Shown here: piece by piece, positions 37,370 through 59,271 of the stretch
Layout: every line of letters starts with the position of its first letter
Position numbering within the stretch: the first letter of the stretch is position 1
Assembly (NCBI GenBank): GCA_964016885.1
Contig: OZ024741.1
Location: 222,518,001-222,582,000 of the forward strand
DNA length: 64,000 nucleotides
Direction of reading: 5' to 3'
Source of the DNA: Eledone cirrhosa
Taxonomy: Eukaryota
Program-made: the position numbers and the translations under genes
Notes under the pieces: generated by a model
Databases searched by the model: none
What the model saw: only the letters and a program-made list of their open reading frames with translations
What the model was told of the DNA's origin: nothing

Positions 37370-37632
37370 TTATATTAGCTTCACGCTTGGGGGAAGTGCA
37401 GGAGGATTCGACGTTTCAGACAGACTTCAGAGCAACTGTCTCTGCCGAAAATTATAGAGCCTGGATTCTTATAGAATTCCAGTAATAATCAGGAACTGAT
37501 TATACAGAGCGGTTGCCTGTCCAGCAAAAATTAAAAGTTAGGATTGGTGCCCTGAAATAGCGATGTATAAATGAATGGCAATATACCGTATGTTTAATTA
37601 AAAACATTTTGAAGACCTTGCGCTATCATTTT
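37370..37632 (-). mobile_element. Diverged relative of the 310-bp unit with a decayed HHR; further pieces at 38040-38150 (plus) and 38183-38242 (minus)
   Basis: Shares CTTATAGAAT, CAGGAACTG, AGAGCGGTTGCC, CTGAAATAGCGAT and AACATTTTGAAGACCT with the 310-bp unit. Confidence 0.75.
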
Positions 37633-37679
37633 AATCCAGCCTCTATAATTTTAGGCAGAGACATTGCTCTCAGGAACAC

Positions 37680-37845
37680 CAAGACTTCTGGTGTCCTCGA
37701 CCCTAGGGCTACCTCCCTACTCACCACCAGAGGCGCTGAGCTGGCCAGCCGCAGGTGTGAACGCCGCGAGCTGGAGTGGCTTTTCCAGCGCGTCTCCCTT
37801 GTCATCCTCCGGGGAAACGCCTTCTCCATCCTGTCCGCCGGGGCT
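37680..37845 (+). mobile_element. CRE-clade LINE C-terminal RLE fragment
   Basis: WLFQRVSLVILRGNAFSIL. Confidence 0.75.
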
Positions 37846-38146
37846 GTGTGTGTGTGGTGCTGGTGGTGGGGGGGGAGCATCGCGTATCATTCCATATTTA
37901 AGTATGACCACTATCATATATTTTAGGTGGTATCTTCTGTAAGTTGCTGCTGTTGTTGCTTCTGCTGTTGTTGCTTCTGCTGTTGTTGCTTCTGCTGTTG
38001 TTGCTTCTGCTGTTGCTGTAATCAAAAGTCTCTACCATAAAATGATAGCGCAAGGTCTTCAAAATGTTTTTGAATTAAACATACGGTATATTACCAAATA
38101 TACTATACATACATTCATATATACATCGCTATTTCAGAGACCAAGC

Positions 38147-38186
<40 letters not shown>

Positions 38187-38239
38187 GCTTGGTCTCTGAA
38201 ATAGCGATGTATATATGAATGTATGTATAGTATATTTGG

Positions 38240-38309
<70 letters not shown>

Positions 38310-38629: not shown

Positions 38630-39216
38630 ATATTTCGGTAAACCCATACGTACATATATATATGTGTGCATGTATGTATATACATACTACTGTACGTCTG
38701 TATACATATATGTATGTACGTATACATATTTACATTTAAGTATCAGCTGTACTAAGAGTGAGAAATGAAAATTCATTTTTACCATTTATCGTTTTTGGTA
38801 CGCCTGGCCGACTAACTCACTCGATATGTAAATTAGGCTGCTCAGCCGTTAATATGCATCAGGAATATATATACTTTCAAACGTTCAATCAACTGACAGG
38901 AAGGTATACGGTGCTGATGACAGCTAATAAGCTAGAAACTACTTCATCGTTCCTTTGTCAGTGTTGAACAAAATGGCAACGATGGTTGCCGAACACTGTA
39001 CGGCTAATAATTCGGGCTGTTTGTTTACAAACAAACCGAGCATTATAATAAATGTTCGGTAAACCCATACTTACATATATATATGTGTGCATGTATGTAT
39101 GGATATACATACTACTGTACGTCTGTATAGATATATGTATTACGTATACATACATTTATGTATCAGCCGTACTACGAGTGAGAAAGGAAATTTCACTTTT
39201 TCCATATTTTTTCCAT
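38630..39216 (+). mobile_element. Family C 1.4-mer (period about 421 bp) with a partly decayed HHR at 38893-38961
   Basis: TTCGGTAAACCCATAC at 38634 and 39055. HHR reads ACGGTG-CTGATGA-CAGCT-aata-AGCTA-GAAACTACTT-CATCGT. Confidence 0.8.
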
Positions 39217-39223
39217 ATATATA

Positions 39224-40869
39224 TATGGTATCCCTAAAGTACATAAAAGTGAATTAATAAGTAAGGCATGCAAAGAAGCCACAGACATAGTCATCAATGT
39301 CCCCTCACCCAATGATCTCAAATTAAGACCTATAATAGCAGGCCCCGCTTGCGAAACCCACCGCCTTAGCAACTTCATTGATACCCTTCTCAAACACATC
39401 AAAAGCTATATAAGGGACGACCTAGATATGCTCAATCACCTCCCTAATATGCCCCTTTCTGAACAAACCCTACTAGTGACGTTCGATGTAGTCAACCTAT
39501 ACTCCAACATCCCCCACAACCTACGAATAGAAGCTATCCAATTCTGGCTGGATAATTACCACAATGAACTCCCACAACGCATCAAAAAAGAATTCGTGAT
39601 AGAGGGACTCAAATTTATCTTGGAGAACAATTACTTCGTTTTCAATAACAAACCCTACAGGCAGAAATCTGGGACAGCTATTGGAACGAAAACAGCCCCC
39701 TCTTATGCCAACCTAGTCATGGGATACCTGGAAATCACCCTCTACACTAAATTCCTAAACAAATTTGGAAACACTCTCCACTTACACATAGAAAGGAACT
39801 GGAAGCGATATCTAGATGACTGCTTCATCCTTTGGCACGAAAACATCGAGAAACTTAAAGAATTCCACACCCTTATAAATGGGCTCAACACGAATATTAA
39901 CTTTACGATGGAATACAGCCATCAACAACTCCCCTTCCTCGACATCCTCATTAAGATTCATCACAAAAAAATAGAAACAGACATATACTACAAGCCCACA
40001 GACTCCAAGCAATATCTTCCTTTCAACTCTTGCCACCCTAGACACGTTAACATTAATATTCCCTACAACTTAGCCAAGAGAATCTGTACTATAGTCTCCA
40101 ATAAAAACACCTGCTACTTACGGCTACAAGAACTAAAGGACACACTCATAGGCAGGGACTACCCTGCATCACTAATTGACAATGGAATCCAACGTGCCCT
40201 AAAACTCAGTACCCAAGACCTTAGACACCCTAAAGTAAATCAACCGAAACTAAAAGCTCTTCCATACATCTCCACACACAACCCTCTCAACAATGAGGCC
40301 TTTGACACCATCCTCCAGAACATCCCTGTGTTGAAAAAGGACCATAGAATGAACCAAATCCTACGAACACACGATATCATAAAGAGCAAAAGACAATCTA
40401 AGTCAATGAAAAACATCCTAACACATGCCAAAGTACTGCAAACCACAACAACGAAACCCACAGTAAAAAAATGCGATAGACCCAACTGTGGCATATGCAT
40501 CAACCTAATAGAGGGTTCGGAATTCTATTTCAAAGAAGGACACGTTTTATAGTAAAACACAATTTCACATGCGCATCAGAAAATTTAATATATGTATTAA
40601 CTTGCTCAGGTTGTCGAGAACAATACATAGGCCAGACCAAAAACAGCCTCCGCCAACGCATGACTGTCCATAGATCCCAAATTAAAATATGGGAATACAG
40701 GAAAATACCACTGAGTGAACACATTGATACCTGTGCCGCCCAAAATCATCCCAACTTCAGAATCTTTCCCCTCTACAAATTTAAAGATAATGCCACCCAC
40801 ACCCAGCGCATCAGCAAGGAATCTTACTTAATTAACAAATACGGACCCCGTCTAAACACTTCTCCCTAA
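39224..40869 (+). pseudogene. PLE reverse transcriptase-GIY-YIG ORF with one frameshift near 40545
   Basis: YGIPKVHK, LRPIIAG, FDVVNLYSNIP, GTAIGTKTAPSYANL, RYLDDCF, LPFLD, YYKPT, SCHP, CDRPNCGIC, then LIYVLTC..YIGQT..R..H in the next frame. Confidence 0.92.
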
Positions 40870-41384
40870 GACGAACCCACAACATACGCACGTCAACATA
40901 CATACCTACATCAGCATACATCTCTATCCACATATAAACACAATGACATACGTAAACACACATGCTCTATGGTGCAACACAAATATACACAAATTTGCAT
41001 ACCTTTTGATGTCTATAGATATAAACGTGCCGACACACACACATACATAAACGCACACATGCATTGCACACTGATTGGCACATACATATTTGTACACAAG
41101 TATTCCAATACGGCAAGGCCTAATGGACTCCCCTTGCAGTACGTACAATCTGGACACTCACACACACCTTGGTATTATGTCAATACTATATACCATTTCA
41201 CACCTTTTATTATTAAGGTTTTTGATGTTCTATTGAGAGAATCGTTTTTACTGAAAATATCGAATAATGTACACCATTTTACCAGTATCACAAAAATACT
41301 GGTCTACCCACACACACACACACATTCTCATACACACACATATATACACACACACATACACACGCGTACATTAACATACAAAGA

Positions 41385-47100: not shown

Positions 47101-47169
47101 CTGGCAGGAAGGTATACGTTGCTGACGATAGCTAATAAGCTTGAAACTAGTACAGCGTTCCTTTGTCAG
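47101..47169 (+). ncRNA. Type I HHR (family C)
   Basis: CTGGCAGGAAGG..ACGTTG-CTGACGA-TAGCT-aata-AGCTT-GAAA-CTAG-TA-CAGCGT-TCCTTTGTCAG, with predicted cleavage after 47152. Confidence 0.85.
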
Positions 47170-53479: not shown

Positions 53480-56400
53480 ATAAATGTCTTAACATAAGAA
53501 AACAAAACTTCTGGAAAGCATTCAAATGCGAAATATATGTCGGAACACATTCGAAATGACTCTCTCTAACGGCACCCATACTCCCTCGTAAATACCTAAT
53601 TACAGAAATTGCAGGAGAACCAGATGAAGAAACAAAACTCCGATGGGAACTTACATTGACATAATTCAGGACCGGCATCTCCATTACTCAATGTAAGCAA
53701 TCCCGCTACAAAGCCAAATAGAAGCTATCGATGACCAAATTGAAGTCGAAATTTCAAAGCTAACGACTGGTAATATAGCTGAAAAACTACGAGAACTATG
53801 GATCAGAGATATCTCAAAAGAAGAAAGCAAATCAAGAAAGTTATGGCAGCAGAAACAATTATTTCTCGACGAATATGCTGCAAATTACGGTAAAGACTCT
53901 GGAATTCTGAGAAAAAGCATTAAAAGTGAACAATCTCGCCAACACAACATACGCCAGAACACGTGGCAACACAAACACTCACCTTACCTTGAATCAAAGA
54001 AGAACTACGGTAATAACTCTTCGCTTTTTCTACAAAAACACCCTAACGCACACAACATGAACAAAAAGCACAAACACGATAGATATTCCTTTGACCAGAT
54101 CAGGAGAAGTAGAAAAACCAGGAGATCTTTCTCAAGATCTCAACAGGAACGGAAGAAAAACGTAGAATAACCAGATCACTCTCAAGATCTCAACAGAGAT
54201 GACCCACAATAAAATGGGCGAAAAAAACGATTTAAACCTGAAAGCAAACCTAGGTCATTTTCCCAGATTGTTAAAAATAATGCTAACAAGAAATGGAAAA
54301 ATAATATACATAATACCAAAAATAGGACAAAAAACATAACGAAACCAAATATAATATCACGACCAAAAGTTCATCAAGCAAACACCAACAGGAATATAAA
54401 TCCGGAACATAGAAAAATCCATTTTTTAACGTCAGGACAACAAAAACCGGAAAAAGAAAGACTCCAGGAGGAAACATACCCAAACAACTGAACACGTAGA
54501 TCCTAAAATAATTAATTTATCCAAAAGAGATCTCGACAATGATGAAATGCAAATTCTGTCAAAAGGACTGAAATTCACACCGACTCCAACAGTCAACCAC
54601 CAAGAACCGAAGGAGGATACCCAAGAATTGTGTCGAAAATTACGATTTGTAGAATTCTTCGCTGATAAAAGTAATGAGAGTGATGAATCACTAGTAAAGA
54701 ATAAATCAAATTTCACTCCGCCAAAAGGAAGAAATATCTATCTCGACCAATACATTGACATCCTGTCTAAATTTCCTCTTAGACGTAATACAAATGTTAG
54801 GCCAAACATTAACAAATCAGAAATGTCTGCACTTAAACGTATAAAAAATGATAAAACAATAATAATTAAACAAGCAGATAAAGGGGGTGCAATTGTTATA
54901 ATGGATGCTGAATACTACAAAGACTTGGTTGAGGAACAACTGAAAGACACAACATTCTATCATGAAATACCGTCAAATATAGACCACAACATCATGAAGA
55001 AGATCAACAACCTGGCTTCAAAATAGTACAACTCACTTACTGATAAGGAAAGAGACTAATCACCAATTTTGAGCCAAAACCCAGCAACCTCTATGGCCTA
55101 CCGAAAGTTCATAAGTCAAAAGAAATCCAACTGGCAGTAAAAGAACAAAAAAGTGAGTACATTAAATTACTACACCCCAAAAACTTAAAACTTAGACCTG
55201 TTATAGCTGGTCCAACATGCCCTACCAACCGTCTAAGCAATTTTGTTGACATTATTTTGAAACCACTATGTATTCCCATATCAAGTTTCATCCGGGATGA
55301 TATCGACTTCCTGTCCCATCTTCCCAAAACCACGGAAACGAATTCACTTCTACTTAGTTTTGATGTGGTAAGCCTTTACACCAACATTACACATGATTTA
55401 GGAATAAAAGCGGTTAAACTGGGTGGAAAAACAGAGAAGCGATTCCCACCAGATTCACAGCGCCATTTATATTAGACGCACTCAAACTTATTCTGGAAAA
55501 CAACACTTTCTTCTTCAATGGAAAGAATTACATCCAAATTAGAGGCACAGCGATGGGAACGAAGTTTTCTCCCGTTTACGCGAACTCTGTAATGGGATAC
55601 TTAGAACAACAACTCTACCAAGAAATAGGGGAAAAATATAGTACTGACTGTAGAAAGTACATTGAAAAATCTTGGAAGAGATACCTTGACGACTGTTTCA
55701 TCATCTGGACAGAATCTCTAGATACTCTGGATGAATTCAATATCCTCCTGAATAACCTACACCCATATCTTCAATTCACAAAAGAGATGAGTAGTACCAA
55801 ATTACCATTCCTAGATATAATGTTAATCAAAAACGACACCACCATTACCACGGATATATATTATAAACACACAGACACCCATCATTATCTGAATTTTAAA
55901 TCGTGCCATCCACCTCATACAAAACGCAACATCCCATACTGCCTAGCCAGAAGAATTTGTACCATTGTAGAAGATACGAATACCAGGTACAAACGCCTAA
56001 CAGAACTGAGAGGATTTTTGCTCAAACAAAAATACCCATCTCTACTTATAGAAAATGGCATACAACGGGCTATAAAAATACCATACAACAACTTAGGACA
56101 ACCCAAGGAAGAAGAAATCAAGAACTGGCCATACCATTTATAATGACACACAACCCATGTCACCAGAATATCTTCAACACTGCCAAAGCAAACCTACCAA
56201 TCATTGCTCAAAGTAATGAATTAAAAGGTTTAATCACAGACCGATATTTGACTCTTAGTAAAAGACAGCCGAAAAGTTTGAAGCAATTACTAACAAAAGC
56301 AAAGTTTGACCTTAACAACAAAGACCAATCATTCACTGTATCTAAATGCAATGATAGTCGATGCGGCACATGTCAATCCATACACGCCGGTCAATATATG

Positions 56401-56535
56401 AAAACAAAAACTGGAAAAATATTCCCAAATGCAAATATGAACTGCAAAAGCAGAAATCTAATTTACTGCATTAAATGCCCGAATTGTGAAGAACTATATG
56501 TCGGTCAAACTGGAAATGCACTATCGGAACGTGCA
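53480..56535 (+). pseudogene. Near-full-length decayed PLE ORF (Neptune-like RT and GIY-YIG), 3'-truncated
   Basis: IINLS..LSKGLKFTPTP, IKQADKGGAIV, LYGLPKVHK, GTAMGTKFSPVYAN, RYLDDCF, SCHP, CNDSRCGTC, LIYCIKC..YVGQT. Several stops and frameshifts. Confidence 0.92.
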
Positions 56536-56674
56536 CGAGCCCGAAGACTCATCAGGCCGGTACTCATCCCGGTCTCCGTGATGCGAAGCAACTGAGAGTA
56601 CAGACTACCCTCTGGACAGGATGCCAGTCTATCGCAATATATATATATATATATTGCGATAGACTGGCATCCAT

Positions 56675-57113
56675 TATCAAGGGGAGATAAGCCGACAAGG
56701 TCTTGTTTCGCATTTATTGATGCTTATCAAGGCTAACTACTCCCTCCTGTCTACTGAGTTCACTGATGTTATATTCTTATAGAATTCTAGTAATTAACCA
56801 GGAACTGATTATACAGAATTGGAGCTCTGAAATAGCAATATATATATGAATGTATATATAATGTATTTTGCAGTGATCTCAGTGATCTTAGTAGACAGGA
56901 TGGAGTAGTTAGCCTTGATAAGCATCAATAAATGCGAAACAAGGCCTTGTCGGCTTATCTCCCCTTGTTTGCTGAGATTAAAGTAAGTGAGTTTGTCACT
57001 ACTCTAAAACAATAGCATACGGTCTTCAAAATGCTTTTAATTAAGCATAAAGTGTATTGCAAAATACATTATATATACATTCATATATATATATTGCTAT
57101 TTCAGAGCTCCAA

Positions 57114-57117
<4 letters not shown>
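56675..57117. mobile_element. Divergent insertion of a 310-family relative (minus arm 56678-56872, plus arm about 56881-57117)
   Basis: Shares GGTCTTCAAAATG, GCTATTTCAGAGC, TTCTATAAG and GTTCCTG boxes with the 310-bp unit. Each arm has an HHR. Confidence 0.85.
56887..56976 (+). ncRNA. Type I HHR with U3-A8 core (inverse copy at 56678-56758)
   Basis: AGCC-TTGATAA-GCAT-caataa-ATGC-GAAA-CAAGGCCTTG-TC-GGCT, with outer stem I CTTAGTAGACAGG/CTTGTTTGCTGAG. Confidence 0.85.
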
Positions 57118-57162
<45 letters not shown>

Positions 57163-58477
57163 ATATGTACACATAAATAAGACCGTTATTGCTCTAATCA
57201 CTGTGCGAACACCCTAAACCGAACGCCAGCCTGTACCCATGACTGATGCCAAACCAAACCGCACTCACTCTCCAAATTCGACAAATTAAACGCGGACCAC
57301 CCAACCTCCCAAACTTGGCTTATGCAGTAGCCACCTAATAAGGAAGACATACGTTATCAAGCTGCAGCTGTCATATTACGTAGTTTCTATAAAATAAAGC
57401 TAATATTATCTGCAGCGAGTACGACTCCATTACGTAATAAACCGTGCTCCACCTCCTCCCGTTGTCAAAATATCCACTTAGATCACGTGATGCCGTGCAT
57501 CGGAAGGTCTAGTTCTCACAACACAACATTATAACCAAAACAAAATAATAATAATCTAGAAAATAGCTAAGCCATAAACAAGCGAAATGAATACACGATA
57601 AAAACCACAAGAAGTCTAGTTTAAAACCATAAATACCCAAGCCATTAAAGAGATATGCGAAATGAATACAAGATGAAAAATACAAATACGGTATCAGAAA
57701 ATACGATACAATAACAAAAGGCGACGCAAAAGGTATAAACCTCAATGTCATTAGGGTCGGACGCTATGCTTTGCAGCATAGAGTTACGGCCCTTTATGAT
57801 CTGAGTTCAAATCCCGCCGAGGTTAATTTTGCCTTTCATCCTTACGAGGTCGATAAAATAAAGTACCAGTAATACACTGGGGTAATTGCTGGCTTTGTGC
57901 CAAAAGTAGAAACAATTATTTACATACCAATATATATAATATATACACACGAATATTAAGCATAATTAAGAGTAAATCATATATACACAAACCTACATGT
58001 ACAAATAGGATCAACCAGGCAATCAGAGATTTGCATAATTGATTAACGAAATCCTATCTTGACCGCCCCTAAGAATGTGACCATCCTTCAAAGCCAAAGC
58101 AGAGAAAGTAAAAGACAAAGACAGAAAGAATCACTAGCTATAGCACTTTGGTCAAGTATCGATCAATAAATGTATTACCTCTAAACAAAACTAAATTTCC
58201 CCAAGTGCAAATAGGTTAAATTTCTACAGCTCCAATGCAAAATTACACAACCTTTCTTTTTTAAAAATTACTACTTCAAGGCAAATATACTAAATTTTCT
58301 TAGATCTCAAAGCAAATAAATAAAATTAAGATTAAATTAAATTAAATTCTAAGCCATACGCTTTCTAAAACAAACTGAAACTAACCCCACCAAAATTTTC
58401 TTAGATTCATAGCCTTGCGTCGGACTATAGTTTGTGAGTGTGAAAGATTGTAGATTGAAATAGTTTTGCAGCCTGAT

Positions 58478-59105
58478 ATATATATAAATATATAAATGTA
58501 TATATAGTGTATTTTGCAATACACTGTATGCTTAATTAAAAGCATTTTGAAGACCTTACGCTATTGTTTTAAAGTAGTGGCAATGTCACTTACTTCTATT
58601 TTCAGCAAACAAGGGGAGATAAGCTGACAGAGCTCTGTTTCGTACTTGTTGGTATTTATCAAAGCTCAGCACTCCCCTGTCTGCTGAAAATTATGAATGT
58701 TGGATTCTTATAGAATACACTATATATACATTTATATATATATATATATCGTTATTTCAGAGCACCAATTTCAGAGCACCAATTCTTATTTTCAATTTTT
58801 GCTGGACCGGCAACCGCTCTGTATAATCAGTTCCTGATTATTACTGGAATTCTATAAGAATCCAAGATTCATAATTTTCAGCAGACAGAAGGAGCGCTGA
58901 GCTTTGATAAGTACCAACAAGTACGAAACAGAGCTCTGTCAGCTTATCTCCCCTTGTTTGCTGAAAATAGAAGTAAGTGACATTGTCACTACTTTAAAAC
59001 AATAGCGTAAGGTTTTCAAAATGCTTTTAATTAAGCATACAGTGTATTGCAAAATACACTATATATACATTTATATATATATCGCTATTTCAGAGCACCA
59101 ATTCT

Positions 59106-59108
<3 letters not shown>
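58478..59108. mobile_element. Divergent insertion of another 310-family relative (minus arm 58478-58716, plus arm 58715-59108, about 1.2 units)
   Basis: ATACACTATATATACATTT at 58715 and 59054. GGACCGGCAACCGCTCT and other boxes are shared with the 310-bp unit. Confidence 0.85.
58874..58968 (+). ncRNA. Type I HHR with U3-A8 core (inverse copy at 58598-58691)
   Basis: TGAGCT-TTGATAA-GTAC-caacaa-GTAC-GAAA-CAGAGCTCTG-TC-AGCTTA, with outer stem ATTTTCAGCAGACAG/TTGTTTGCTGAAAAT. Confidence 0.88.
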
Positions 59109-59164
<56 letters not shown>

Positions 59165-59271
59165 AAGAGTGTGTGGCAAGATATCAGGTGGACCATAACG
59201 CACCAGAGTACTCAATACTTAGGGTAGTAGAGTGGGTAATAGGATGATAGTCAGGACCCCGACTCTTTTCC

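Follow-up and report, generated by a model that had tools for sequence, protein, structure and literature searches.

The units of 310-320 bp that recur along a 64,000-nucleotide stretch of the Eledone cirrhosa genome (hereafter the window) are best explained as non-coding tandem repeats that bear a hammerhead ribozyme, have fixed insertion ends and covary at the level of lineages, and they very probably work as non-LTR retrozymes. As in that class, they are tandem units in the 150-450-bp range, with one type I hammerhead each and a low GC content, dispersed at high copy number. It is likely that they spread as circular RNAs copied by Penelope-type retrotransposon enzymes; from genomic DNA we infer their transcription, cleavage and circularisation, and the Penelope partner.

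Hammerhead units in the window

The source genome comprises 3.0 Gb in 1,796 contigs, and the window is AT-rich with abundant (TA)n. A scan of both window strands with our own descriptor for type I hammerheads matched the core CUGAUGA at 1595 and in 16 other array units (17 units in total) and the core UUGAUAA at 56915 (plus strand), 56724-56730 (minus strand) and 58904 (plus strand). These motifs possess the core Y3-U-G-A-N-R8-A, GAAA, UH and three helices, open at stem I, as expected of type I hammerheads. The first-pass annotation had compared the copies at 1.6, 56.9 and 58.9 kb, and the descriptor scan and a position check located the quoted cores and arms of stems I and II exactly there, with stem I arms at 1589/1626, 56911/56952 and 58898/58941, stem II arms at 1602/1611, 56922/56932 and 58911/58921, and stem III at 1619, 56939 and 58928. 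Its claim of covariation in all stems holds for stems I and II; for stem III it holds only between the 56.9- and 58.9-kb copies, because stem III of the 310-bp unit is shorter and not alignable pair by pair. The hairpins reported outside the ribozyme are present at 1394/1405 versus 57031/57043 and 59021/59033 (first hairpin) and at 1413/1425 versus 59041/59053 (second hairpin), but the second hairpin in the 56.9-kb copy reads AGTGTATT/AATACATT. Likewise, the conserved boxes are present, except that box 1 is GGTTTTCAAAATG, at 59011, and that CCGGCAACCGCTCT is missing from the truncated 56.9-kb copy.

The ribozyme domain folded with z scores of -5.0 to -7.0 against shuffles in four of the five copies folded, and with a z score of -1.3 in the truncated 56.7-kb copy. 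An Rfam scan of the units gave no match at the gathering score, with Hammerhead_HH9 appearing below threshold at four sites (E 0.002-0.17). The base of stem II carries a U-U mismatch in many copies of lineage A and an A-A-type mismatch in lineages G and H.

The copies belong to lineages A to D. Lineage A forms an array of 310-bp units with an inverted arm (1..1297, minus strand), which reaches 10 full units including the part to the left of the window and stops right before the CGCTATTTCAGAG box, and a direct arm of 13.6 units (1295..5510, plus strand), which stops about 30 nt beyond the start of the box, leaving a tail; both arms stop at (TA)n. Its hammerhead (1589..1631, plus strand) has the core CUGAUGA (C3-G8), a short, palindromic stem III and a predicted cleavage site 3' of A1625. 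Lineage B is represented by a rearranged inverted piece (56678..56872, minus strand), in which a U3-A8 hammerhead has its core at 56724-56730, and by a 5'-truncated unit (56879..57120, plus strand) ending at the tail position in (TA)n; the hammerhead of the latter (56911..56955, plus strand) has the core UUGAUAA (U3-A8) and would be cleaved 3' of C56951. Lineage C comprises an inverted arm without tail (58473..58716, minus strand), with a hammerhead core at 58656-58662 and a G10.1-to-A mismatch at the base of stem II, and a direct arm of about 1.2 units (58717..59108, plus strand) that also ends at the tail position in (TA)n; here the core is again UUGAUAA (U3-A8; hammerhead at 58898..58946, plus strand), with predicted cleavage 3' of C58940. 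Lineage D is left with fragments lacking an intact ribozyme at 37436-37634 (minus), 38027-38151 (plus) and 38182-38246 (minus), together spanning 37436..38246. No open reading frame of 80 or more amino acids was found over the 56.7-59.1-kb units. The unit boundaries are truncations or fixed TA-flanked sites, and the units are hence not bounded by LTRs.

Other repeats share the window. A lineage J hammerhead repeat (core CUGAYGA, stem II AGC/GCU; a sister of lineage G) was found at 38900-38960 and 47119-47160 (both plus) and at about 17530-17570 (minus). One unrelated repeat follows a TA run behind both the 310-bp array (5575-5770, where it contains a long perfect hairpin) and the 58.9-kb copy (59160-59270), and is probably another TA-targeting element. 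Two minimal hammerhead-like motifs (CUGAUGA...GAAAC) at 16329 and 16726 (plus), about 400 bp apart, are likely terminal repeats of another Penelope family. The 56.7-kb copy is bordered on its left by a perfect hairpin whose loop is (TA)n (56609-56684); this hairpin draws spurious miRNA matches and is the inverted end of a different insertion. In addition, there is a 3.7-kb array of 60-bp units of TTG-type triplets at 10457-14155, and a short interspersed repeat at about 57.7-57.9 kb which we take to resemble one common in octopus genomes.

Family size and lineages

A hammerhead pattern consisting of core and loop II had 18,300 matches in the whole genome, against 12 for the reversed control. 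DNA searches of the same genome found dispersed relatives of each window copy. Lineage A accounted for 68 of the first 100 listed among the 18,300 pattern matches, and the figure of 35 lineage A candidates from the DNA searches is therefore an undercount. At least eight lineages were distinguished from 300 loci, with C3-G8 in lineages A (310 bp), D, E, F and J, and U3-A8 in lineages B, C, H and the distant G. Representatives of lineages A-E share 58-90% identity, and identity to the most central copy within a lineage falls from about 98% (A and B) to 93% (D and E), suggesting successive waves. The family had been described as old and diversified; it is diversified, and old as a whole, but the 310-bp lineage is young, all 13 plus-strand units of its array in the window being identical.

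Several loci elsewhere in the genome deserve mention. A further hammerhead repeat family has stem II GTTG/CAAC (L179:301 and L247:404, plus) and is additional to those on the tree. Locus L231 (G000:C1:6519000-6522500) is a lineage B array of six units that carries a compensated variant of stem III of its own. Another locus, L093 (G000:C2:273396618-273398004), is a four-unit lineage A array whose ribozyme has been destroyed, with an identical A-to-G series over stem II and GAAA in each of the four units, a pattern consistent with an edited RNA template having been copied round a circle. Lineages G and J both carry a ATGCAAAT octamer upstream; since newt satellite 2 uses an snRNA-type promoter, the boxes may include promoter elements.

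The 3-8 core pair

In one fixed flanking context, the whole genome contained 111 C3-G8 and 210 U3-A8 cores, compared with three U3-G8 and five C3-A8, and position 7 of the eight mismatched copies fits a single mutation from one or the other parent. When positions 3 and 8 were left free, 99 of the first 100 listed matches were paired (82 C-G and 17 U-A, with one U-G; hand count). The U-A pair was present in 98 of the first 100 among 828 matches of lineage B and in 95 of the first 100 among 142 of lineage G. Amplified lineages with a mismatched 3-8 pair were absent from four samples, in which mismatched cores occurred as scattered single copies. As all these counts reflect a few amplified templates rather than independent events, trees were built with the core removed.

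In the core-less tree, lineages B and C form one U3-A8 clade (support 97/90) with B nested within C. The 56.9-kb lineage thus lies inside the 58.9-kb lineage, and the window shows one core swap only; the C3-G8 to U3-A8 swap noted at first is real, but the three window copies represent a single event, and its repetition comes from lineages outside the window. A tree of 44 rows including H and G required two switches and rejected a single U3-A8 clade (AU p 1e-4), and a tree of 40 rows including lineage J required three (AU p 6e-8, with a long-branch warning), so that a single origin of all U3-A8 cores was discarded. Switches were counted without direction, and both trees leave out one U3-G8 copy of lineage G and L291, which is a solitary D-type copy bearing U3-A8. 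From these sequence comparisons, the 3-8 pair appears to have switched independently two or three times in the wider tree, two being the cautious figure because G and J are only loosely alignable to the rest and their long branches may meet. That U3-A8 is a natural and active variant, as had been asserted, agrees with the natural U3-A8 cores published in PMC3088659 and with the approximately 1,300 U3-A8 matches described for Schistosoma in PMC4209133.

Covariation of the RNA fold

Among 11 real copies from five lineages, both sides had changed in 10 of 13 ribozyme pairs and in 11 of 36 outside pairs, counts that exceeded all 500 shuffles and all slid controls, although the rows are related. 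Counted once per lineage edge, there were 34 double changes, 32 of which keep pairing, whereas 13.4 doubles would be expected if the two sides were independent; of the single changes on these edges, 17 leave the pair intact and 30 create or abolish a pair, some of them through shifts of alignment register. H enters this count with two copies, and L291 and the whole of lineage G lie outside it. Among the helices that covary are two 3' hairpins, a long continuation of stem I, and a long-range pairing of ATAGCG with the CGCTAT box, where a G-C pair has become A-U in 20 of 27 lineage B copies. Circular folds of the monomers listed gave z scores of -2.7 to -7.3, and both predictions and covariation indicate that the monomers are highly self-paired.

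Such covariation could be largely mutational, and need no selection on the fold, if reverse transcription or DNA repair switched templates between inverted repeats and one arm was thereby copied from its partner. In favour of this, on five of six edges the divergence of paired columns equals or exceeds that of unpaired ones, inversions are frequent in the insertions, and the sequence of lineages E and C would allow a 4-bp mini-hairpin that includes positions 3 and 8. Doubles are also in excess within lineages (13 seen, 11 of them pair-keeping, against 2.2 expected); templated mutation may contribute to this excess, and hidden sub-lineages could produce it as well. Within lineages, however, stem changes are mostly single (116, of which 67 break the pair), G-U intermediates exist between lineages C and B (L233 and L234), and the unpaired core remains intact between covarying arms that are 40-90 nt apart. 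Taken with the absence of amplified mismatched lineages from the four samples, these data make a largely mutational origin unlikely.

The inserted genomic copies decay neutrally. With lineage members picked by their flanking boxes rather than by their core, the 11 core positions accumulated 25 differences in 726 comparisons within lineages (3.4%), and positions elsewhere 670 in 18,464 (3.6%), which suggests that selection is likely to act on the templates that get copied. We infer, then, that constraint acts on templates founding new lineages. The proposal of selection on the whole RNA fold is borne out by covariation inside and outside the ribozyme, but does not extend to the genomic copies.

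Insertion anatomy and the link to Penelope elements

The 3' ends were counted at 110 of 112 non-redundant loci (from 172 loci), the duplicated cluster on contig C14 being left out. The 3' end was visible in 184 arms, of which 134 end at one of two fixed sites: 61 immediately ahead of the CGCTATTTCAGAG box and 73 a further 25-34 nt on. TA repeats follow 108 of these 134 arms, and the 5' ends are variable. There were 61 head-to-head inverted pairs; 31 have two canonical ends, combining one short and one long arm in 27 cases, an anatomy also visible in the window array and in the 58.5-59.1-kb insertion. Hallmarks of Penelope elements include an inverted 5' copy, a 30-40-bp tail on one end and a bias towards microsatellites (10.1101/2021.04.23.441226), and the units show the same footprint, with 5' truncation, an inverted 5' copy, a one-sided tail (about 26-33 nt) and microsatellite bias. 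The predicted cleavage site is about 140-170 nt upstream of the fixed ends. Among the 134 arms, two stop at that site and 75 are longer than one unit, the figure for arms crossing the site being inflated because loci were chosen with ribozyme-containing queries. Long arms and few ends at the cleavage site fit a circular or uncleaved multimeric template.

This anatomy bears on whether the units are an ordinary satellite amplified by DNA recombination, with the ribozyme as a relic. Homogeneous tandem arrays, the neutral decay of copies and segmental duplicates on C14 would suit a satellite, but fixed ends, 5' truncation, inversions, TA targeting and the repeated paired core swaps would not; the insertion ends and core-less trees already largely refute this explanation, to which we attach hardly any weight. 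Replication from RNA to RNA by viroid-like agents that are occasionally written into DNA is also very unlikely. The circles would be highly self-paired on both strands, variants are many, and PMC7229834 left this option open for mussel retrozymes, but an opposite-strand hammerhead was absent from the window's units (descriptor scan; other ribozyme types via Rfam only), and thousands of dispersed insertions carry a stereotyped retrotransposition footprint. The phrase "replicating RNAs" used of the family is therefore best read as retrotransposition through RNA: spread through RNA is likely, but copying of RNA from RNA is not supported, given the Penelope-type footprint and the lack of an opposite-strand hammerhead. 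No sequencing run on record was listed as RNA. Of four runs of unrecorded kind, three yielded one 340-nt cyclic contig and the fourth a very deep and varied coverage, results in which a DNA array and an RNA circle are indistinguishable.

The window also contains a broken Penelope-like element (53697..56540, plus strand) with a reverse transcriptase (RT) and GIY-YIG-like frame, cut short near 56540 and with the same insertion anatomy as the units. It belongs to a resident young Penelope family (L174-L202 and 53697-56540) with 21,935 candidates and several intact 775-aa frames. The terminal repeat of this family carries a type I hammerhead whose stem II arms match those of lineage F, and 23 of the 24 copies listed end at two TA-flanked sites about 40 nt apart (nine short, 14 with a tail); copies L183 and L184 form a short-plus-long inverted pair. 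Between the units and the terminal repeat of this one Penelope family no boxes were found in common, only the anatomy and a similar stem II; lacking the units' boxes, the family illustrates the mechanism rather than identifying the partner. As parent of the 56.7-kb copy, the 53.7-56.5-kb element was rejected, since it is cut short and has a different terminal repeat. A second, divergent Penelope-like element lies at about 39200-40870 (plus), its RT being about 51% identical to that of the first.

The units could instead be solo or tandem pseudo-LTRs of an autonomous Penelope element, in which case selection would have acted on that element's terminal repeat instead of on free circles. Pointing this way are the type I hammerhead and identical end anatomy of the resident Penelope terminal repeat, and the pLTR homology described for Xenopus retrozymes in 10.64898/2026.07.22.740005. 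However, neither coding sequence nor a Penelope frame runs into a unit at any of the 134 loci, and the arrays contain nothing but tandem 310-320-bp units, with up to 14 identical ones, which leaves this possibility quite improbable.

The mechanism we favour is that of a retrozyme. Tandem copies would be transcribed, the transcripts would self-cleave to monomers, the monomers would be ligated into circles, and the circles would be reverse-transcribed round by a Penelope-like RT and endonuclease into (TA)n sites. Such RNA templates would be filtered, in that new lineages would be founded only by variants whose core works and whose fold is intact; a filter of this kind would account for the amplification of both C3-G8 and U3-A8 and for the occurrence of mismatched cores only as scattered single copies. 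Counting against the expected activity, only one of nine predicted retrozyme dimers cleaved in vitro in the work described in 10.64898/2026.07.22.740005.

A possible self-blocking helix

The non-A lineages have a longer stem III, whose 5' strand is able to pair with core nucleotides 3-5 and with the end of stem I. The partner base tracks position 3, the pair being C-G in D, E and F, U-G in C and H, and U-A in B and G. In predictions from a model without tertiary contacts, the blocked fold was 2.5-6.4 kcal/mol more stable than the active fold in eight of nine non-A copies scored, a set that lacks two H copies, and it was also predicted to prevail in most circular ensembles. The helix is supported by one clear double change, and L231, the six-unit amplified array, breaks it. 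On these predictions the helix is a lead only; that it forms a built-in off switch, in which monomer circles would be self-blocked and palindromic stems III would activate tandem transcripts, is a tentative idea and more doubtful than not. What blocks the ribozyme in animal circles is described as unknown in PMC7229834. If true, such a switch, together with the fixed priming site 26-33 nt past the GCTATTTCAGAG box, would provide a worked example of how retrozyme circles escape re-cutting and pass to the Penelope RT.

Relation to known hammerhead repeats

The metazoan non-LTR retrozymes described in PMC7229834 resemble the present units in being non-coding 150-450-bp tandems with GC below 50%, one type I hammerhead per unit and thousands of copies, with self-paired monomers and co-resident Penelope elements. 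For example, helix III of the axolotl HHR_Amex2 in that paper is 2 bp long and its helix II has a U-U at the base, as in many lineage A copies. The two differ in sequence and host, the present family is known from genomic DNA, and U3-A8 and a stem III of 4 bp occur in several of its lineages. No double fixed 3' ends, TA targeting or inverted arms are reported in the main text of PMC7229834, where "inverted" has 0 occurrences. The hammerheads of Penelope-like element (PLE) pseudo-LTRs, including the U3-A8 variant of Schistosoma mansoni (PMC4209133), share natural U3-A8 cores, covarying families, a palindromic loop 3 and opposite-strand neighbours, whereas the present units have helices of canonical size, pure tandem arrays and no linked reading frame; in insertion anatomy, the units match the PLEs described in 10.1101/2021.04.23.441226. 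In the pDo500 satellite hammerhead of Dolichopoda (PMC2837043), compensatory stem changes around a conserved core were likewise taken as selection, but that comparison was made across species, whereas ours is among lineages within one genome and extends to the 3-8 pair and to helices outside the ribozyme. For vertebrate retrozymes, 10.64898/2026.07.22.740005 also proposes PLE origin and mobilisation, on the basis of co-occurrence and pLTR homology; here the basis is the insertion footprint, and a homologous pLTR was not found in the one Penelope family examined.

We found no description of this repeat family among the titles and passages searched; the supplement of PMC7229834 and one of PMC4209133, which lay outside their scope, may list related hosts. 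Retrozymes as a class, natural U3-A8 cores and covarying stems in such repeats have already been published, so that the finding as first framed is unsurprising. Its value is as a test bed, in which at least eight lineages of different ages coexist in one genome with two or three apparently independent swaps of the core pair, and constrained templates can be contrasted directly with neutrally decaying copies. The insertion footprint ties retrozymes to Penelope machinery, a connection for which earlier proposals, as set out in the sources above, rested on co-occurrence and homology. Two questions thereby become testable, namely which enzyme mobilises animal retrozymes and what silences the ribozyme in the circle.
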